Shown here piece by piece: positions 3,974-20,772 of a stretch of 64,000 nt of DNA. The notes beneath the pieces are model-generated. The model did not search any database. It saw only the letters and a program-made list of their open reading frames with translations, and was not told the DNA's origin. The stretch covers positions 190,934 through 254,933 of the forward strand of contig MFIU01000001.1 in NCBI GenBank assembly GCA_001778985.1, read 5' to 3'. Each line of letters begins with the position of its first letter. The stretch's first letter is position 1. This DNA comes from Candidatus Giovannonibacteria bacterium RIFOXYD1_FULL_48_21. Its GTDB lineage: Bacteria > Patescibacteriota > Minisyncoccia > JACPKW01 > UBA11713. The position numbers were made by a program, and so were the translations under genes.

Positions 3974-6715
3974 ATGGCGGGTTTTTCGAGAATTGAGAAA
4001 AAATGGAACGCTCTCTGGAGAAAGACCGGGGTTTTTGAGCCAGAGTTAGGGCGTGCGAAAAAGCCCTTTTATAACTTGATGATGTTTCCGTACCCTTCGG
4101 CCGAGGGGCTCCATGTCGGGAATATGTACGCTTTTGTGGGCTCGGATATTTATGGGCGCTTTCAGCGGATGCGTGGCAATGACGTTTTTGAGCCGATTGG
4201 CTTGGACGGCTTTGGGATTCATTCTGAAAACTATGCTTTGAAAGTAAAAAGGCATCCCGCCAAGCAGGCGAAAATTTCCGAGAAAAATTTTTACCGCCAA
4301 CTCGGGATGATTGGTAACGGCTTTGCCTGGAAGGAGAAACTCGAAACCTATGACCCCGAATACTACAAATGGACCCAGTGGATTTTTGTCCAGATGTTTA
4401 AAAAGGGATTAGCGTATCGCAAGAAACAGGCGGTCAACTGGTGTCCTGACTGCAAAACCGTTTTGGCGGATGAACAAGTCGTTTCGGGAGAGTGCGAACG
4501 TTGCGAATCGAAGGTAATTAAAAAAGAACTCGAGCAGTGGTTTTTCAGAATCACGAATTACGCCGAGCGGCTTTTGAAGGATTTGGAAAAAATCGACTGG
4601 TCGGAAAAGGTGAAAATCGCCCAGAGAAATTGGATTGGACGCTCGGAAGGAGTGGAAATAGAATTCAAAATTCAAAATTCAAATCTCAAAATTAAGGTAT
4701 TTACTACTCGACCGGATACGCTTTTTGGTGCGACTTATATGGTTCTGTCGCCGGAGCACGAGCTGATAGGAAAGCTGGAATCAAGAATTAAAAATTACCA
4801 AGAAGTCAAAAAATATATTCAAAAAGCGAGAACACCTGCGGAGGACAAAGAAAAAACTGGAGTGGAGTTGAAAGGAATTAAAGCTGTAAATCCGGCAAAC
4901 AAAGAGGAAATCCCAATCTGGGTCGCTGATTATGTTTTGGGCGGCGTGGGCACCGGCGCCATTATGGCCGTTCCGGCGCACGATGAGCGCGATTTTGAGT
5001 TCGCGAAGAAGTTCAAACTACCGATTAAACCAGTGATTCGGCGGGCAGATATACCCATACGCAGCGTTCTTATGGGATTTGATAATATTCACAGCGAAGA
5101 GTTGGTCTCTTTGGGGATTAAGGAAGTTTGGCCGGCGGACAAAAATCATAAGTATATTGAGATTCCAGAAAATTCTTTGCCTGCCTTTGAGAAATTAATT
5201 CGAGAGAAAATGACGCCAGGATTTTGGAATGAATATATTACCCATCAACGTGTAATTTTTATTTTCAAGGATAAAAACGGCCTGGTGGAACGTTTGGAAC
5301 TAACACCAGGAACTGACAATAAAATTAATCGCCTCTCCGCTATTTATAATAATGAGCCGGAGCCCAAAGGGAGCGTTTGGAATTGGCTACCAGATGTACC
5401 TTTTTATAAAGAGCTTTTTATTCACACTGAACGAGGTATATTAATTAACTCTGCTAAATTTAGCGGCATGGATTCCGAGGAAGCGAAATGGGAAATCACG
5501 AAATTTGTAGGCGGCGAGAGAAAAGTTCAATATCGCCTGCGGGACTGGCTGATTTCGAGGCAGAGATATTGGGGCCCGCCGATTCCGATGATTTTTTGCG
5601 AAAAATGTAATTGGCAGCCGGTGCCGGAGCAAGATTTGCCGGTGAAGCTTCCTTATTTAAAGGACTGGCGGCCGAAGGGGACAGGTGTTTCGCCTTTGGC
5701 GTCAGAGTCCAAGTTTTACAAGGTTAAGTGCCCAAAATGTAATGGCGAAGCTCGGAGGGAAACCGATGTTTCCGATACTTTTTTGGACTCGGCGTGGTAT
5801 TTTTTCAGATATCTTGACGTGAAAAATAAAAAAGAGATTTTTTCAAAAGCGCTTGCAAGGAAGTGGCTTCCGGTGGATATGTACATCGGCGGGGCAGAGC
5901 ACGCGGTTTTGCATCTTTTGTATGTGCGGTTTATCACCAAAGTTTTTGCGGATTTGGGTTTAGTTGGTTTTCGCGAGCCTTCCAAGAAATTCCGCGCGCA
6001 CGGGCTTTTGATCAAAGATGGGGCGAAGATGTCAAAGTCCCGCGGCAATGTGGTGAGTCCCGATACTTACATTAAAAAATTCGGCGCGGATGCTTTACGG
6101 ATGTATTTGATGTTTTTGGGGCCCTTTGACCAGGGTGGGGATTTTCGCGATTCCGGTATACTCGGGATAACTCGATTTTTGGCGCGCGTGCAAAAATTTG
6201 AGAAAAAACTTGCGAGTACTTCCAAAGAAGGGCTGGCCGAGAATTCCGAACGGATAGTGCACCAAAGCATTAAAAAAATAACCGAAGATATCGAAAGTCT
6301 TCGCTATAATACCGCGGTTTCACAGCTGATGATTCTTTCGAATAAGCTGGAAGAACTTCCCAAAGTGCCTTGGGCGGCTTGGGAAGTTTTTCTGAAACTT
6401 CTCGCGCCCTTCGCGCCTTATATTTCAGAAGAGCTTTATCAGAAATTCGGCAAGAATAAGAGTTTTCGCAAACAAAATTCGGTTCATCTTCAATCTTGGC
6501 CGAAATATAACGCGAAGAAAATAAAGGAAGATGTATTTTTACTAGTGGTGCAGGTTAACGGCAAGGTCCGCGCGACGATTCAGGCGCCGGTCGGAATTTC
6601 GGAGAAGGACGCGGAACGGATTGCGCTTGCGAACGAAAACGTGAAAAAATATTTGTTGCCCGGTCTGCGTAAAACCATTTTTGTTCCGGATAAATTGATA
6701 AATTTTGTAGTATGA
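3974..6715 (+). CDS. leuS: Leucyl-tRNA synthetase
   Basis: HVGN (HIGH) motif, KMSKS motif, editing-domain regions; 913 aa. Confidence 0.93.
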   Translation: MAGFSRIEKKWNALWRKTGVFEPELGRAKKPFYNLMMFPYPSAEGLHVGNMYAFVGSDIYGRFQRMRGNDVFEPIGLDGFGIHSENYALKVKRHPAKQAKISEKNFYRQLGMIGNGFAWKEKLETYDPEYYKWTQWIFVQMFKKGLAYRKKQAVNWCPDCKTVLADEQVVSGECERCESKVIKKELEQWFFRITNYAERLLKDLEKIDWSEKVKIAQRNWIGRSEGVEIEFKIQNSNLKIKVFTTRPDTLFGATYMVLSPEHELIGKLESRIKNYQEVKKYIQKARTPAEDKEKTGVELKGIKAVNPANKEEIPIWVADYVLGGVGTGAIMAVPAHDERDFEFAKKFKLPIKPVIRRADIPIRSVLMGFDNIHSEELVSLGIKEVWPADKNHKYIEIPENSLPAFEKLIREKMTPGFWNEYITHQRVIFIFKDKNGLVERLELTPGTDNKINRLSAIYNNEPEPKGSVWNWLPDVPFYKELFIHTERGILINSAKFSGMDSEEAKWEITKFVGGERKVQYRLRDWLISRQRYWGPPIPMIFCEKCNWQPVPEQDLPVKLPYLKDWRPKGTGVSPLASESKFYKVKCPKCNGEARRETDVSDTFLDSAWYFFRYLDVKNKKEIFSKALARKWLPVDMYIGGAEHAVLHLLYVRFITKVFADLGLVGFREPSKKFRAHGLLIKDGAKMSKSRGNVVSPDTYIKKFGADALRMYLMFLGPFDQGGDFRDSGILGITRFLARVQKFEKKLASTSKEGLAENSERIVHQSIKKITEDIESLRYNTAVSQLMILSNKLEELPKVPWAAWEVFLKLLAPFAPYISEELYQKFGKNKSFRKQNSVHLQSWPKYNAKKIKEDVFLLVVQVNGKVRATIQAPVGISEKDAERIALANENVKKYLLPGLRKTIFVPDKLINFVV

Positions 6716-7475: not shown

Positions 7476-7941
7476 AGAGGCTGTCCGAGTTTTGAAAAAA
7501 GGCGGCGTGGTTGAGATTCCGACAGACACGGTAGATGGTTTGGTTTGCGATTACTACAACAAAGCCGCCGAGGAAGAGATATTCCGGCTTAAGAAGCGCC
7601 CGAGAGAAAAAATTCTTTCGATTTTTGTGAGTTCGATTGATGAGGTTAAAAAAATTGTTCCGGTGAGCGAGAATCAGGAAAAATTTTTAAGAAAGATCTG
7701 GCCAGGTAAGGTTACGGCAGTTCTTAAAAAAGATGTCGGCGGGTTTAGGATTCCAAATGATGAATTTGTCCTCGAGGTTTTGAAAAAATTCGGCGGGCCT
7801 TTATTGCAGACCTCGGCCAATATTTCAGGCGAACCGCCTGCCGGAGGAACGCCGTCAACCGTCGTGGATTTGACTAAGTGGCCATTCAAAATCCTCCGCC
7901 AAGGCGCAGTTTCAGAAAAGGAATTAAATGAGCTATATTGA
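7441..7941 (+). CDS. tsaC: L-threonylcarbamoyladenylate synthase (YrdC/TsaC family)
   Basis: YrdC-domain-like sequence (GGVVEIPTDTVDGLVCD ... LLQTSANISGEP). Confidence 0.65.
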   Translation: MKVLKFSAKNIEEAVRVLKKGGVVEIPTDTVDGLVCDYYNKAAEEEIFRLKKRPREKILSIFVSSIDEVKKIVPVSENQEKFLRKIWPGKVTAVLKKDVGGFRIPNDEFVLEVLKKFGGPLLQTSANISGEPPAGGTPSTVVDLTKWPFKILRQGAVSEKELNELY

Positions 7942-9119
7942 GTGATATGAAAGACCGGGAAATAGAAAAATTAATTAAAGCGGAAGAGAAACGCCAGAAG
8001 CGGGTGATTAATTTAATTCCCTCGGAAAATTATGTTTCTCAAGACGTGCTTCGGGCGCTGGGCTCGGTGCTGAATAATAAATATTCCGAAGGGTATCCCG
8101 GGAAGCGTTATTACGGCGGAAATGTCATTATCGACAAAGTAGAAAACCTTTGCCGCAAGCGAGCTCTTAAACTTTTCAAATTAAAACCGGAGGAATGGCA
8201 CGTAAACGTGCAGCCGCTTTCGGGGAGCCCGGCGAATCTCGCGGTCTACGCGGCCTTGGTGCCGCTGGGCGGAAAAATCATGGGCTTGACGCTCTCCTCG
8301 GGCGGGCATCTTACCCACGGACAGAAAGGTTCTGTAACCGGAAAAATTTGGACGCAGGTGCCCTACGCGGTTGACCCCAAAACAGAGACGCTTGATTACG
8401 ATGCTCTCCAGAAACTCGCGATACAAGAAAAACCAAATATAGTCGTGGCTGGCTATACGGCTTACCCGCGATTTGTTGATTGGAAAAAATTCAAAGAGAT
8501 AGCAAATGCTTCCGGCGCCATACTTATGGTCGACATGTCTCATATGGCGGGGCTCATTGCCGGCGGAGTATATCCGAGTCCGTTTCCGTACGCGGATGTG
8601 GTGACTACCACAACGCATAAAACTCTCCGCGGCCCGCGCGCCGCGATTATTTTTGCGAAAAAGGACGCGCGAGAATTTGATAAAAAAATCGACAAAGCGA
8701 TTATCCCCGGGCTCCAGGGTGGGCCGCATGAAAACCAAATCGCGGCGGTCGCGGTTTGTCTCAAGGAAGCCATGAATCCCGCGTTTAAAAAGTATGTTAA
8801 GCAAATTATAAAAAACGCGAAAGTATTGGCACTGAGCTTGTCGAAGTGTGGCTGGCGGGTTATTTCGGGGGGCACGGATTCGCATCTGCTTCTGGTAGAC
8901 ACCTGGATGGACGGCAAGGGAATTTCAGGCAAGGATGCCGAAGCCGCTCTTGAAAAAGCCGATATTATCGTAAATAAAAATACGATTCCCGGAGACCAGC
9001 GAAGCCCGCTTGACCCATCCGGCATTCGCCTCGGCACCCCGGCCGTGACCACGCAAGGAATGAAAGAACGCGACATGAAAAAAATCGCCGAAAGAATTCA
9101 TAAGATTTTGTCGCGATGA
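7938..9119 (+). CDS. glyA: Serine hydroxymethyltransferase
   Basis: LIPSENYVS, YSEGYPGKRYYGG, and the PLP-Lys region (TTTTHKTLRGPR). Confidence 0.95.
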   Translation: MSDMKDREIEKLIKAEEKRQKRVINLIPSENYVSQDVLRALGSVLNNKYSEGYPGKRYYGGNVIIDKVENLCRKRALKLFKLKPEEWHVNVQPLSGSPANLAVYAALVPLGGKIMGLTLSSGGHLTHGQKGSVTGKIWTQVPYAVDPKTETLDYDALQKLAIQEKPNIVVAGYTAYPRFVDWKKFKEIANASGAILMVDMSHMAGLIAGGVYPSPFPYADVVTTTTHKTLRGPRAAIIFAKKDAREFDKKIDKAIIPGLQGGPHENQIAAVAVCLKEAMNPAFKKYVKQIIKNAKVLALSLSKCGWRVISGGTDSHLLLVDTWMDGKGISGKDAEAALEKADIIVNKNTIPGDQRSPLDPSGIRLGTPAVTTQGMKERDMKKIAERIHKILSR

Positions 9120-16095: not shown

Positions 16096-16956
16096 TCATA
16101 TAGATTTGTGCCAAAGTCCGCCCTTTTGTTTTACTAAATTTTTTAGTTCGAGTTCCATCAATTTTTGACTCAAAAGCGAAGGTTTTAATTTGAGCTCGAG
16201 AATAATTTCATCCGCGCTTTTAGGTTCCTCGAGATATTGAAGCAAAGTTTGGGCGAATTCGTCCAGCTTGTCAAGCCCGGCGTTTTTTTCTTTGGGTACT
16301 TTCCCTATAAGATAGAGCGCGTCCTCGGGGCTTAAAATCGGGTGCGCTCCTTCTCTCAAGAGGCGGTTTGAGCCTATGAAATTCGAACGCGAGATGTCCG
16401 CCGGCACAACCGCCACTTCGCGTCCGGCCTCGAGGGCCAATCGCGCCGTAATCAAGGCGCCTGATTTCTCCGGAGCTTCTATTACAATAATTAGCTGCGA
16501 GAGCCCGGCGATTATCCGATTTCTTTCCGGAAAAGTGAAATATTGCCCCTTGGTTTCCGGAGGATATTCCGTTATCAAAGCGCCGCCCTTTTGGACAATG
16601 GAATTCGCGAGAGGTAAGTTTATTTTAGGCCAAACATTATCCAAGCCCGAACCCAAAACCGCCCAGGTTACGCCTTCGCCCGCCAGCGCTCCTTCGTGCG
16701 CGCTCGAATCTATTCCGAGCGCGAGACCCGACACCACCAAAACTCCTTCCCGAGCCAGAGTTTCGGCTATTTTGAAAGCCGTTTCTTTGCCGTAGGAAGT
16801 CGCGCGCCTCGTTCCCACGATCGCCACTTTGGGAGCACTCGACTGAAGATTTCCTCTTATATAAAGACCCTTGGGCGGCCAAGGAGTTTCGAGAAGCTCT
16901 TTCGGAAAATTCTCTGTGTCTTTCTTCACAAAATAAATTTCTTCCCTCGCTTCCAT
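16096..16956 (-). CDS. dprA: DNA processing protein DprA (Smf)
   Basis: Rossmann-like DprA core (VAIVGTRRATSYG...VVSGLALGIDSSAH). Confidence 0.85.
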   Translation of the reverse strand: MEAREEIYFVKKDTENFPKELLETPWPPKGLYIRGNLQSSAPKVAIVGTRRATSYGKETAFKIAETLAREGVLVVSGLALGIDSSAHEGALAGEGVTWAVLGSGLDNVWPKINLPLANSIVQKGGALITEYPPETKGQYFTFPERNRIIAGLSQLIIVIEAPEKSGALITARLALEAGREVAVVPADISRSNFIGSNRLLREGAHPILSPEDALYLIGKVPKEKNAGLDKLDEFAQTLLQYLEEPKSADEIILELKLKPSLLSQKLMELELKNLVKQKGGLWHKSI

Positions 16957-17062
16957 ATTTTTTAACTATACTTCAATTAAAATTTAAGGTAAAATTTTGG
17001 GCATGAAATGGATTGGAATAAGCGGAGTTGATTTTGTGAAAGAATTTTGCTAAACTTAAAAA

Positions 17063-17257
17063 ATGGCAAAGGACTGGACAAAGATTTGGGAAAAATACAA
17101 AGGGCTTTGGGTGGCTTTGGATGAGGATGAGGAAACGGTATTGGGGGCAGGGAAGACCGTGCGTGAGGCCTTGGAGGAAGCAAAGAAAAAGACTGACAAA
17201 ACGCCTTATTTAACTCGGATGCCAGAAAAGCTCGTCGCTTATGTCGGCGTTCTATGA
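17063..17257 (+). CDS. Small DUF5678-like protein (64 aa)
   Basis: WVAL.DE..VLGAG.T..EALEEA pattern; overlaps the next ORF by 4 nt (ATGA). Confidence 0.5.
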   Translation: MAKDWTKIWEKYKGLWVALDEDEETVLGAGKTVREALEEAKKKTDKTPYLTRMPEKLVAYVGVL

Positions 17258-17655
17258 AGTTCAGATATGCCCGATATGGTTCGATACTTCGACCGGTCAT
17301 ACCGATAAAAGTTAAGAATGGCGGTAATGAAATTGGTTATCACGTTCTCGTAGATTCAGGAGCGGATCTATGTTTGTTTGACGAGGAGATCGGGCAAACT
17401 TTGGGCATCGATGTGCGAAGCGGAAGGGCGCAAGAAGTTTTTGGCGTTGGAGGTAAAACCTCGGCGTATTATCTTCACAGGGTACAAGTAGAAATCGGTG
17501 GTCATGAATATGATATTGAAGCCGGATTTATGCAGAATGTGGCCGGTCATATTATGACTTATGGCATAGTTGGCCAGAAGGGATTCTTTGATATCTTTGT
17601 TGTAAAATTTGATCTTACTAAGGAGGAAATAGAGCTGAAAGAACGGAGAAGATAA
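17254..17655 (+). CDS. Retropepsin-like (clan AA) aspartic protease
   Basis: Catalytic D-S-G-A motif (HVLVDSGADLCLF) followed by a hydrophobic-hydrophobic-Gly region; 133 aa. Confidence 0.6.
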   Translation: MKFRYARYGSILRPVIPIKVKNGGNEIGYHVLVDSGADLCLFDEEIGQTLGIDVRSGRAQEVFGVGGKTSAYYLHRVQVEIGGHEYDIEAGFMQNVAGHIMTYGIVGQKGFFDIFVVKFDLTKEEIELKERRR

Positions 17656-17708
17656 TTTTTAGAGTGAACCCCTTTTCTTTTTTTGGGAAATATATATAAT
17701 GTAGAAAC

Positions 17709-19568
17709 ATGAAGCTTATTTCAAAGAATATCATTGTAGCTTTTCTTATTTTGATGCTCCTGGCCGGGGCGTATTCGGTTTTGCAGGAAAACCTCCGCTC
17801 CCAGGACGAATTATCCCTTTCCGAACTCGTCAAAAAGATTAACGCCGGCGAGGTTGGGAGCATTGTCGTCAGGGGAGACGAGCTTGAGGTAACCTTGAAA
17901 AACGACGCGGTTTTCCTTGCTAAAAAGGAAGCCGAGAGTTCGCTTTCTGAAACCTTGGCCAACTACAGCGTTTCCAAAGAAGCGCTGGGCCAGGTTTCAG
18001 TTGAAGTAAAAAATCCCTCGGGCTTTTTATTCTGGCTCGCGGCCCTCCTGCCGTTTCTGCTTCCGTTTCTGCTGATCGCGCTTTTTTTCTGGCTAGCGGC
18101 CCGGCAGGTACAGAGGGCGAATATTCAAGCTTTCACCTTCGGGCAATCCAGAGCCCGCGTGGTTCAGCCTGATTCCAAAAAAGAAAGGGTTACTTTTCGG
18201 GACGTGGCCGGAGTTAAAGAAGCCAAAGAAGAGCTCGTTGAGATTGTGGAATTTCTGCGCGCCCCAAAGAAATTTTTAGATATCGGCGCCAGGATTCCCA
18301 AAGGGGTTTTATTGATGGGAGCTCCGGGCACGGGAAAAACGCTTTTAGCGCGAGCGGTGGCGGGGGAGGCCAACGTTCCGTTCTTTCATATCTCGGGTTC
18401 TGAATTCGTGGAGATGTTCGTGGGAGTCGGGGCTTCGCGAGTCCGCGATTTGTTCAAAATGGCTAAGCGCTCCGCGCCGGCGATTGTATTCATCGATGAG
18501 ATTGACGCGGTCGGGCGTCATCGCGGCGCGGGACTTGGCGGCGGACATGACGAGCGGGAGCAGACCTTGAACCAAATTCTGGTTGAGATGGACGGCTTTG
18601 AGCCGCACGAGTCCGTGATTGTGATGGCTGGCACCAATCGTCCGGATGTTCTGGACCCCGCGCTTCTGCGTCCCGGAAGATTTGACCGCAGGGTGATTCT
18701 CGACCTTCCGGATATTAACGACCGCGAAGAGATTTTAAAACTTCACGCTTTGAAAAAACCTTTAGGCAAGGAAATAAGCCTTAGGCTCATTGCCGAGCGC
18801 ACCCCGGGTTTTTCCGGAGCGGATTTGGCGAACTTGATGAATGAGGCCGCGATTCTGGCGGCGAGAGAAAACCGGAAAACAGTAAGCCAGCTGGATTTAA
18901 CCCGCTCTATCGAGAAAGTCCTCCTGGGTCCTGAGCGGAAAAGCCACATCCTTTCGCAGAAAGAAAAAGAAATTTCAGCTTATCACGAGGCCGGGCACGC
19001 CCTGGTGGCCGCAGTTTTACCTAATGCTGACCCCGTCCACAAAATTACAATTGTGGCCCGCGGCCGGGCGGCCGGCTACACTCTGAAACTTCCCTCTGAA
19101 GACCGCCATCTCTACTCTCGGCCGAATTTTTTGGATGAGCTGGCCGCCGCGCTCGGCGGTTACGCTTCGGAGAAACTGGTTTTCGGAGAACTTACCACCG
19201 GCTCGGCCGATGATATTCGCAAGGCCACAATGATTGTGCGGGATTTGGTAACAAGATACGGCATGTCTGAGAAAATCGGGCCCATAACCCTCGGCGAGAG
19301 AGATGAACTTGTGTTTCTGGGTAAGGAGCTCGGAATCGAGAAAAATTATTCCGAAGAAACGGGCCGGCTGATTGATTCTGAAATGAAGCGCTTCATGAAA
19401 AACGCGTTTTCGCGCGCCCTGGGAATCTTGAGAAAATACCGAAAGGTGCTCAACGCTCTCGCCGGACGTTTGATTGAAAACGAGACCATCGAGCGCGAGG
19501 AGTTCGAAGCGATTTTGAGCTCTTTCGGTCTGAAGCAAATCCTGCTCGCGCCTGTAGCTCAACGGTAG
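17709..19568 (+). CDS. ftsH: ATP-dependent zinc metalloprotease FtsH
   Basis: N-terminal TM helices, Walker A (GPPGTGKT), SRH region and HEAGH zinc motif; the 3' end overlaps tRNA-Ile by about 20 nt. Confidence 0.95.
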
Positions 19569-19622
19569 AGCACGGAGCTTATACCTCCGCGGTTCTAGGT
19601 TCAAATCCTAGCAGGCGCACCA
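19548..19622 (+). tRNA. tRNA-Ile(UAU) (anticodon TAT) with encoded CCA
   Basis: Cloverleaf: acceptor GCGCCTG/CAGGCGC, anticodon stem CGGAG/CTCCG, loop CTTATAC, T-loop TTCAAAT. Confidence 0.8.
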
Positions 19623-19698: not shown

Positions 19699-20355
19699 AT
19701 GGGATTTTTCAATTTTTCGAAATATAACGATATGGAAAAGGCCATGCTCGATATGTATTCCCAAATGTTGAGTATGCGGGGCATTCCATCTTCTGAGGCG
19801 AAAAAGCTAACAGAGGATATGCTCGATCAGGCAATCGAGGAATCTAAAAAAGATGGGACTTACAATCTCCCTCAAAATTTGGGCGATATCATTTTTGGAG
19901 ACGTGGGTACAGATAATCTAACTATCAAAAAAATTGCAGAGAGTATTCGACAGAAATTACCTTACAAAAAAGAAGAGGGTGTTCGAGATCAAGATGTTCG
20001 GTGGTGGTGGAATTTGAATGATATTGAGCGTCGAATGATGCTGAAACAAGATGACGCCGCTCGCATGACACTAATTCTCCACGAACTCGAAAATAGTACC
20101 GAGCCATCTAAAGAAAAGGCATTCGACACCGCAACTATAAAGGTGCGGAAATTTCATCCTATCTACGGCGACCCCAAAGATACCGCCCATACTAAAGGCG
20201 AAGATCGACCATTGCCTTATGAACTAAAAGACAGGATCAATATCTATATTGAAAAGAGGGCAAAAGAGAGTTCTGGAAATTATAAAGCAGAAATTGAGAA
20301 AGCAACTACTTTCAACGCGCTCGTTAGAAAAGAAATTCGAGCGGGGAAACTTTAA
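19699..20355 (+). CDS. Hypothetical protein (218 aa), AT-rich
   Basis: ORF only; no recognisable motif. Confidence 0.4.
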   Translation: MGFFNFSKYNDMEKAMLDMYSQMLSMRGIPSSEAKKLTEDMLDQAIEESKKDGTYNLPQNLGDIIFGDVGTDNLTIKKIAESIRQKLPYKKEEGVRDQDVRWWWNLNDIERRMMLKQDDAARMTLILHELENSTEPSKEKAFDTATIKVRKFHPIYGDPKDTAHTKGEDRPLPYELKDRINIYIEKRAKESSGNYKAEIEKATTFNALVRKEIRAGKL

Positions 20356-20370
20356 TAATTAGTAAAATTT

Positions 20371-20772
20371 ATGCAACAAGGTCTTATAGTAAAACCAGAT
20401 ATAGAAGAGGAGGATTTGAATAGATTGGTTCAGGTGGTGTATAAAAATGGGTGCACTTATATATCAGTTGTTACCCCGCATAATGAATCGACCCGTCTGA
20501 CAGCTAGAGTGGAGAGGGCAGAGGGGTTTAATCGTGTGGAAATTGATATGCGTAGTTGTAATTGGAATATCAGTGAGGCGGGACAAGGGGTTTTTATTAA
20601 ATTAGCAGAAGATTGGCCGGAGGATATAAAAAACGCGTATTGTGGTAAAAGTATCATGCGGGTTTATATAAAACATGATGACGAAAAAATGTGGGGAGTA
20701 GGATTATGGTTGATGTACATGTTAAAAGTTTTAGCAAAAGGCGAGAATCTGGAGGAAGTAAAATTATCCTAA
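20371..20772 (+). CDS. Hypothetical protein (133 aa)
   Basis: ORF only; 16 nt downstream of the previous gene. Confidence 0.4.
   Translation: MQQGLIVKPDIEEEDLNRLVQVVYKNGCTYISVVTPHNESTRLTARVERAEGFNRVEIDMRSCNWNISEAGQGVFIKLAEDWPEDIKNAYCGKSIMRVYIKHDDEKMWGVGLWLMYMLKVLAKGENLEEVKLS

Follow-up and report, generated by a model that had tools for sequence, protein, structure and literature searches.

A DUF5678 gene and a predicted retropepsin-like protease gene form a co-inherited accessory pair in Patescibacteria and may constitute a toxin-antitoxin-like cassette

What could two small overlapping genes, one for a DUF5678 protein and the other for a predicted retropepsin-like aspartic protease, be doing side by side in the genome of a member of the candidate phyla radiation (CPR; Patescibacteria)? 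The question is raised by a locus of Candidatus Giovannonibacteria bacterium RIFOXYD1_FULL_48_21, which we analyzed within a stretch of 64,000 nucleotides (nt) of contig MFIU01000001.1 (positions 190,934 to 254,933), called the window here and numbered from its own first letter. Open reading frame (ORF) A (17063..17257, + strand) encodes 64 amino acids (aa) and ORF B (17254..17655, + strand) encodes 133 aa; the stop of the former and the start of the latter share the four nucleotides ATGA (17254-17257), and both genes together span 593 bp. This overlap, as well as the solitary position of the pair between dprA and ftsH, had been described in an earlier interpretation of the letters alone, hereafter the sequence-only reading, and our ORF coordinates and Pfam assignments of the flanking genes confirmed both. 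The two genes form an obligate, co-inherited, translationally coupled, autonomous, and accessory pair, and the explanation that we tentatively favor is a toxin-antitoxin (TA)-like module, in which the protease would be the effector and DUF5678 its co-produced inhibitor. The broader proposition, that the pair represents a new TA or abortive-infection class, widespread in CPR, in which a cytoplasmic aspartic protease is held inactive by a co-translated inhibitor of undescribed fold, is conceivable and is put forward with greater reserve.

The association of the two genes proved to be strict. When 185,579 species genomes, one for each species, were scanned, 111 protease copies were confirmed, a count limited by the search pattern, and 80 of them were kept; the CPR hosts included Nomura-, Taylor-, Kaiser-, Yonath-, Zambryski-, Lipton-, Davies-, Levy-, Curtiss-, Magasanik-, Uhr-, and Andersenbacteria. 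A DUF5678 gene immediately preceded the protease gene, in the same orientation, at all 85 informative loci, each from a different species genome, and the recurrence of the same pair in every one of them places the pairing beyond chance; the sequence-only reading had named a failure of the two families to co-occur elsewhere as a refutation, and the pair withstood this check. The exact ATGA overlap was present in 63 of 86 loci, with the remainder between -17 and +15 nt. A second, divergent clade from Microgenomates displayed the same architecture in other contexts (DUF5678 of 70-71 aa, a DTGA protease of 134-135 aa, and a 29-nt overlap), and one Curtissbacteria locus (L085) held two pairs 2.3 kb apart (4807-5396 and 7580-8168), one with a DSGA protease (clade 1) and one with a DTGA protease (clade 2). 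The identity matrices of the two proteins were correlated (r = 0.47), a value reached by none of 500 permutations, and the ratio of nonsynonymous to synonymous substitution rates (dN/dS) was approximately 0.2 for both genes with saturated dS, indicating purifying selection. The subfamily is also larger than had been assumed: in metagenomes, the protease relatives made up no fewer than 912 clusters at 90% identity, so that the epithet "rare" in the sequence-only reading was overstated for this subfamily, and the top 120 relatives had identities of 62-95% and lengths of 119-144 aa (131-139 in nearly all) and came from Patescibacteria where named. Our search of the literature found no description of a DUF5678-protease pair, and proteins identical to both ORFs have been deposited as "hypothetical protein" in metagenome-assembled genomes (MAGs) of Candidatus Giovannonibacteria. 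Pairs were also encountered in MAGs labeled Bacteroidota, Chitinophagaceae, or Gammaproteobacteria (L039, L041, L055, L056, L059, L061, L065, L072, L076, L079, and L086); these labels could reflect mis-binning or mislabeling, or transfer beyond CPR, and the G+C content of 35-51% does not discriminate between them.

The most specific support for the TA-like module comes from the asymmetry with which the pair decays, together with the lack of orphan proteases. The 173 fetched sequences (1.26 Mb) contained 105 paired matches and two orphan small genes, with no orphan protease and no damaged small gene among them, and four of six look-ups from the side of the small protein led to intact pairs. In L170 (2501-2734), the protease was gone and an orphan DUF5678 gene adjoined genes for a PLDc_2 protein and a large N6_N4 methyltransferase. 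In L172 (1463-1810), whose context is the same as that of the intact pair in L155, residues 8-66 of DUF5678 were fused in frame to protease residues 61-134, with deletion of the catalytic region; this decayed copy was the sole fused DUF5678-protease ORF, and no such fusions occurred among the listed protease homologs or 150 small-protein representatives. The protease start codon was altered from ATG to ATA in L047 (~5001), and the protease of L084 (3934-4326) contained an in-frame TGA, which may represent an error, a pseudogene, or recoding. All four damage events struck the protease. Further catalytic-site deletions had been suspected in two 93-aa members of the 90% protease cluster (P0476 and P0477); they were rejected as gene-calling artefacts because the full-length protease (133 aa), along with an identical small protein, is encoded on contig L173.

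The expression signals of the pair point to a self-contained transcription unit. Across 76 homologous upstream regions anchored on the small-gene ATG, with shifted windows as controls, 68 loci had TAnnnT 4-9 nt before the ATG (9-14 in the shifted controls) and 48 had the TGn extension of the -10 element (0-1 in the controls), while a Shine-Dalgarno sequence preceded the small gene in just six. The -35 element was weak, with TTG[AT] in the corresponding zone of only 30 of the 68 loci. In the window, the extended -10 element TGcTAAACT (17048..17056, + strand) ends 6 nt before the ATG of ORF A, and a -35-like hexamer, TTGATT (17028..17033, + strand), can be read from the sequence 17 nt upstream of the -10. 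Because the extended -10 abuts the ATG, a leaderless mRNA is implied, and the cassette should carry its own promoter with a predicted leaderless transcript. We considered leaderless transcription as a module-specific trait and rejected it: dprA and ftsH likewise have -10-like hexamers 6-8 nt before their starts and no obvious Shine-Dalgarno sequence (16957-16993, - strand, and 17680-17708, + strand; crude scan), and this similarity suggests that leaderless transcripts are probably a genome-wide habit of the organism. In L165, the 5' end of the small gene was matched twice (1072 and 1187), the extra match lying 115 nt ahead of the genuine start; the promoter and 5' end may have undergone a short tandem duplication. 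At the protease start, 11 of 79 loci had an SD-like 4-mer and two had a 5-mer. Because the protease cistron has no Shine-Dalgarno sequence and its start lies inside the stop codon of the small ORF, the protease should be made only after DUF5678, by termination-reinitiation at ATGA (17254..17257, + strand). A -1 frameshift of the Gag-Pro type at the overlap was rejected, as no slippery heptamer is present.

The surroundings of the pair varied widely among loci. The 74 upstream genes fell into 63 BLAST clusters and the 77 downstream genes into 72, and no third conserved gene was found among these neighbors, which were mostly housekeeping genes (L5, SecY, Adk, EF-G/Tu, L21, RNase PH, copper ATPase) with only two integrases. 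TA genes or integrases (HicAB, ParE, MazEF, rve) were occasionally near the pair and were counted for the TA-like module. In L013, L025, L033, L045, L047, L048, and L054, the pair stands immediately downstream of rplE (L5) in the ribosomal-protein operon, seven cases that are probably one lineage; in L005-L007 and L012, the pair is flanked by rpsG and fusA and adjoins a ParE-like gene.

The site occupied in the window is itself polymorphic. On its left lies dprA (16096..16956, - strand), with topA further out, and on its right lies ftsH (17709..19568, + strand), with spacers of 106 nt between dprA and ORF A and 53 nt between ORF B and ftsH; the G+C content of the pair is 44%, that of the flanks 48-50%. 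Among relatives of this site fetched via DprA, three had dprA adjoining ftsH without the pair. In the closest, L088, DprA is 88% identical, dprA ~89% identical at the nucleotide level, and the 5' end of ftsH 93%, and the sequence passes from the dprA start through 13 nt into the ftsH promoter; in L090, FtsH is 85% and DprA 70% identical, and in L148, 82% and 62%. In the pairwise alignment of the window with L088, homology ends past the dprA start codon (16956) and resumes at 17667, so that the missing segment (16957..17666, + strand, ~710 bp) comprises the leader, both genes, and a trailer of ~11 nt. The left part of this leader (16957..17016, + strand) has another origin. By blastn, the window up to 17008 corresponds to L173 1-574 and from 17017 onward to L173 1083 onward, with ~508 bp gone from the window, and 16957-17016 matches the region upstream of a NUDIX-like ORF of the sister strains plus its first codons. 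The pair does have its own upstream region, as proposed before, but this portion of it is the remnant of a neighboring accessory ORF. The pair stands alone in the spacer of the window and L163; L161, L164-L166, and L173 hold the NUDIX-like ORF (with an in-frame TGA, called as 98 aa) together with the pair, and L092 (1668-4000) holds an unrelated 407-aa gene resembling glycoside hydrolase family 1 (GH1) and a 249-aa ORF. The dprA-ftsH spacer (16957-17708 in the window) is thus a variable hotspot in this lineage. Neither a clean target-site duplication nor terminal repeats were detected around the pair in the window and the sister strains. The motif CCCTTTTCTTTTT of the empty site was considered as a target-site duplication and rejected, being found to the right of the pair only in the window and to its left only in the sister strains.

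ORF B has the sequence and predicted fold of a retropepsin. It scored 34.4 bits with PF13650 (Asp_protease_2; cut-off 24.3; E = 3.7e-8), the match extending over profile positions 6-88 of 90, and the protease assignment of the sequence-only reading, which had named PF13650 and PF13975 for checking, holds. PF13975 remained under its cut-off (26.1 versus 28.2 bits), as did PF00077; no other families were matched in the Pfam scan. The NCBIfam models TIGR02281 (clan_AA_DTGA, 17.8 bits) and TIGR03698 (clan_AA_DTGF, 15.6 bits) stayed below their cut-offs of ~58 and ~57, which marks ORF B as a separate subfamily. Its sequence includes VLVDSGADLCLF, in which LVDSGAD aligns with LLDTGAD of the protease of feline immunodeficiency virus (FIV); the earlier identification of DSGA as the catalytic aspartate motif of clan AA is therefore well founded, both by this alignment and by the match of the AlphaFold model to retropepsin structures. 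Among 74 homologs, D34, S35, and G36 of the catalytic motif D34-S35-G36-A37 (17353..17364, + strand) were invariant and A37 was at least 90% conserved; G64, G66, G67, and K68 of the glycine-rich flap tip (G64-V-G-G-K68; 17443..17457, + strand) were invariant, with GVGGK aligned to GVGGGK of the FIV flap; and V106-G107-Q108 (17569..17577, + strand), the counterpart of the psi-psi-G-R-D/N motif of retropepsins, was likewise invariant. From the known retropepsin motifs rather than from a tool alignment, we take V106-G107-Q108 to be the equivalent of I85-G86-R87 in the protease of human immunodeficiency virus 1 (HIV-1). The AlphaFold2 model was all-beta (mean predicted local distance difference test score [pLDDT] 91.2; predicted template modeling [TM] score 0.83) with the flap as a beta-hairpin (residues 58-81), and Foldseek matched it to the proteases of HIV-1, FIV, and equine infectious anemia virus (EIAV) at a probability of 1.00, the top TM-score (0.65 over 131 columns) belonging to Rickettsia APRc (5c9f). 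By the PF13650 profile, the aligned catalytic loop, and the predicted fold with its flap hairpin, ORF B (17254..17655, + strand) belongs to clan AA/PF13650 as a single-domain protease, and the invariance of its active-site, flap, and psi-psi-G motifs suggests that it is probably enzymatically active. A single-domain retropepsin needs a homodimer to build its active site, and with one DSGA per 133-aa chain, a dimer is implied by what is known of the family. The maximum Kyte-Doolittle value of the protease over 19 residues was 1.01, and a hydrophobic segment was absent from both proteins; both are for this reason predicted to be cytoplasmic, and the protease to be soluble.

The small protein (17063..17257, + strand) belongs to the family that the sequence-only reading had supposed: ORF A scored 35.5 bits with PF18929 (DUF5678; cut-off 23.2; E = 8.6e-9). 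Its AlphaFold2 model (pLDDT 82 overall, ~63 in the tail) comprises a helix (6-12), two strands (16-19 and 26-30), a second helix (33-43), and a further strand (49-52), that is, a folded alpha/beta core (residues 5-52) followed by a conserved, less confidently predicted tail (residues 53-64) with the motif P..RMP.....YVG. There were 113 close homologs, and an exhaustive profile search yielded no fewer than 768 clusters at 50% identity (E <=1e-10 for 183), nearly all stand-alone proteins of 50-90 aa with the core consensus DWT..KYkG.WVAL.dDe.TV...GkT..eA and the C-terminal P.l.rvP.....yvG. One longer representative, P0418 (169 aa), carries PIN_3 at residues 4-104 followed by DUF5678 at 110-167 and may be a genuine fusion, or else two adjacent genes read through as one; the other longer ones had mis-called N-termini. 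Among the viral predicted structures of BFVD, the sole structural neighbors were uncharacterized DUF5678 proteins of Pandoraviruses, two of which (A0A2U7UG46 and A0A2U7UD66) superposed on the small protein with a root-mean-square deviation of 1.7 A over 50 residues, so that the domain reaches giant viruses.

How far, then, does the pair resemble a type II TA system such as HicAB, MazEF, or ParDE? The likeness lies in the compact bicistronic operon of two small co-directional genes, with the smaller first, a 4-nt overlap, coupled translation, and a promoter of its own, and in an accessory behavior marked by patchy distribution, unrelated contexts, presence or absence among relatives, and a decay that drops the presumed toxin and keeps the presumed antitoxin, although terminal repeats and a clean target-site duplication are missing. 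Obligate pairing, variable neighbors, empty sites, patchiness, the conserved promoter, ATGA coupling, co-inheritance, purifying selection, and the invariant catalytic motifs were all counted for this interpretation, as were the PIN_3-DUF5678 fusion or read-through and the weak likeness of the protease to PDC-M08B of PADLOC. There are also departures. The presumed toxin is an aspartic protease, a class without description as a toxin in the literature searched and, to our knowledge, not a described toxin class at all; the presumed antitoxin has no detectable ribbon-helix-helix, helix-turn-helix (HTH), AbrB, Phd, or HicB-like fold; and Pfam, fold searches, and upstream k-mers gave no sign of a DNA-binding, autoregulating antitoxin, which is absence of evidence and not proof. 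No homology to a known toxin or antitoxin emerged from Pfam, NCBIfam, PADLOC, and PHROGs, the sole link being the PIN_3-DUF5678 protein. The TA or protease-plus-inhibitor look that the sequence-only reading saw in the pair has gained from the empty sites, variable contexts, coupling, and protease-only decay, but what we infer from them stays an inference: a TA-like accessory cassette with a putatively unprecedented effector class.

Under the TA-like module, ribosomes would make the 64-aa DUF5678 protein first from a leaderless mRNA, and the protease would be translated solely by ribosomes that have just completed DUF5678; since the protease would be reached only in this way, the partner would always be at least equal in amount. 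DUF5678 may bind the protease, likeliest through its conserved tail, which could fill the substrate cleft or the dimer interface and leave the enzyme inactive. Depletion of DUF5678 through cassette loss, stress, infection, or turnover would then release protease dimers that cleave their targets and arrest growth, and the outcome would be a self-stabilizing cassette, possibly one that provides abortive-infection defense. Several results weigh against this module. Foldseek of DUF5678 against the PDB gave a best match of only E = 2.7 and the PDB profile search none, and no known antitoxin, DNA-binding, or inhibitor fold was matched in structure and profile searches. No conserved k-mer, operator motif, or inverted-repeat enrichment was found upstream of the pair beyond the -10, which leaves classical type II autoregulation unsupported. 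No defense island surrounds the pair, housekeeping genes standing there instead, and the pair was not found on plasmids, on viral contigs, or in PHROGs phage families. Identity is ~60-70% in Paceibacteria-type records and 50-57% in Microgenomates/ABY1-type records, and because this divergence roughly follows class-level host labels, the module gives the impression of long residence in CPR, not of recent spread. The asymmetry of decay, finally, is based on just four events.

Retropepsins typically process precursors, and DUF5678 might accordingly be a precursor rather than an inhibitor, with the protease as its maturase, cutting for example in or before the C-terminal tail and releasing an active protein or peptide, as in retroviral polyproteins. 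The gene order of substrate then enzyme with 1:1 coupling, the obligate pairing, the hydrophobic C-terminal motif kept across the DUF5678 family, and the example of APRc would all suit this explanation, which we nonetheless regard as unlikely: no exporter, modification, or receptor gene is conserved among the neighbors, both proteins are predicted to be cytoplasmic, no function can be proposed for the product, and DUF5678 persists without the protease in L170 and L172, which would be odd for a precursor that depends on maturation. The same persistence does not suit a non-selfish proteostasis or regulatory protease for which DUF5678 would be a substrate-delivering adaptor or assembly chaperone, as an adaptor useless alone should not outlive its enzyme. 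Such a role would be comparable to that of RimB in trimming modified ribosomal protein S6. RimB is a cytoplasmic bacterial retropepsin-like peptidase with a housekeeping-type function, as summarized in PMC12239564. The adaptor role would fit the strong purifying selection, the divergence that follows host taxonomy, and the frequent placement of the pair in or by translation and proteostasis operons (rplE in seven loci, S7/EF-G, SecY/Adk, L21, ftsH). However, the module has a patchy distribution and is missing from close relatives, the seven rplE loci probably represent a single lineage, housekeeping neighbors are expected by chance because CPR genomes are so small, and the Pfam scan matched only PF13650, PF13975, and PF00077; we judge this role improbable as well.

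The remaining explanations are far less plausible. Enzymatic antitoxins exist in other TA types, and in a type VII-like arrangement with reversed roles, DUF5678 would be the harmful or regulatory component that the protease neutralizes by cleavage. Obligate, coupled pairing would agree with this, but the small gene persists after loss or inactivation of the protease (L170, L172, L047, and L084), the opposite of what is expected of a toxin without its neutralizer, and the coupling guarantees an excess of the small protein and not of the protease, so that we consider reversed roles very improbable. Fainter still is the prospect that the pair was left behind by a retroelement or virus, as a Gag-like protein and Pro that do nothing for the cell, to which the retropepsin fold and the DUF5678 proteins of Pandoraviruses might point: no reverse transcriptase, integrase, or capsid gene was linked to the pair in the neighbor survey, the pair was found on no viral contig and lacks a slippery site at the overlap, and purifying selection acts on both genes across hundreds of lineages.

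Comparison with characterized and predicted systems further delimits the pair. With the HIV-1, FIV, and EIAV proteases (MEROPS A2), ORF B shares the fold, the D-[ST]-G-A loop, the glycine-rich flap, a single domain that dimerizes, and a length of ~100-130 aa; unlike them, it is free-standing rather than part of a polyprotein, bacterial, ~20% identical, and provided with a dedicated small partner. A regulator gene paired with a protease gene is also found in ImmA/ImmR (COG2856-Xre; ICEBs1 and related elements), where the protease is thought to cleave the small regulator. That protease is a metalloenzyme, whereas the present one is aspartic, and the small protein here has neither an HTH nor a cargo element to regulate. 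APRc of Rickettsia (RC1339; 5c9f/5c9d), the closest structural match and itself a bacterial retropepsin-like protein, is an active, dimeric enzyme that autoprocesses and cleaves OmpB, resides in the outer membrane, and is conserved in one genus (PMC4140852). In contrast, ORF B is predicted to be soluble and cytoplasmic with no transmembrane segment, and it is accessory and accompanied by a partner gene. RloA and RimB of Pseudomonas are retropepsin-like peptidases, RimB being cytoplasmic, and the Rlo enzymes have signal peptides and are encoded in operons with transglutaminase-like and ATP-grasp proteins (PMC12239564). The characterized bacterial enzymes of this kind are thus located in the outer membrane (APRc), secreted (Rlo), or encoded within other operons (RimB). 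Neither kind of partner is present among the neighbors here, and the family signature is different. Among the PADLOC models, PDC-M08B showed distant similarity to the protease (E = 5.9e-6 to 3e-7), and none matched the DUF5678 partners at E up to 1; since the protease side alone matches, and weakly, the pair is not PDC-M08, the PDC systems being predictions by "guilt by embedding". PEPT_D, the aspartyl protease associated with type III CRISPR in Sulfolobales, matched the clade-2 protease at E = 1.5e-3, and small retropepsin-domain proteins have been tied to type III CRISPR loci in these archaea (PMC3973734).

Downstream of the pair, a tRNA-Ile gene with the anticodon TAT (UAU) was identified by ARAGORN and Rfam at 19548-19622 of the window, overlapping the last ~20 nt of the listed ftsH ORF. 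Bacteria seldom have a tRNA-Ile(UAU); most of them decode AUA via a lysidine-modified CAU tRNA. The ORFs that follow, at 19699-20355 (218 aa) and 20371-20772 (133 aa), had no significant Pfam match.

Even if the TA interpretation were wrong, a well-defined and strictly conserved enzyme-partner pair would remain. If it is right, aspartic proteases would join the effectors of toxin and abortive-infection systems, and DUF5678, a domain of bacteria, archaea, and giant viruses, would acquire its first function. Retropepsins would also gain their first natural protein inhibitor, which is of interest given that retroviral proteases serve as drug targets. CPR bacteria are not culturable alone, and their tiny genomes are usually considered streamlined; for these organisms, the cassette would offer a handle on accessory-gene dynamics.

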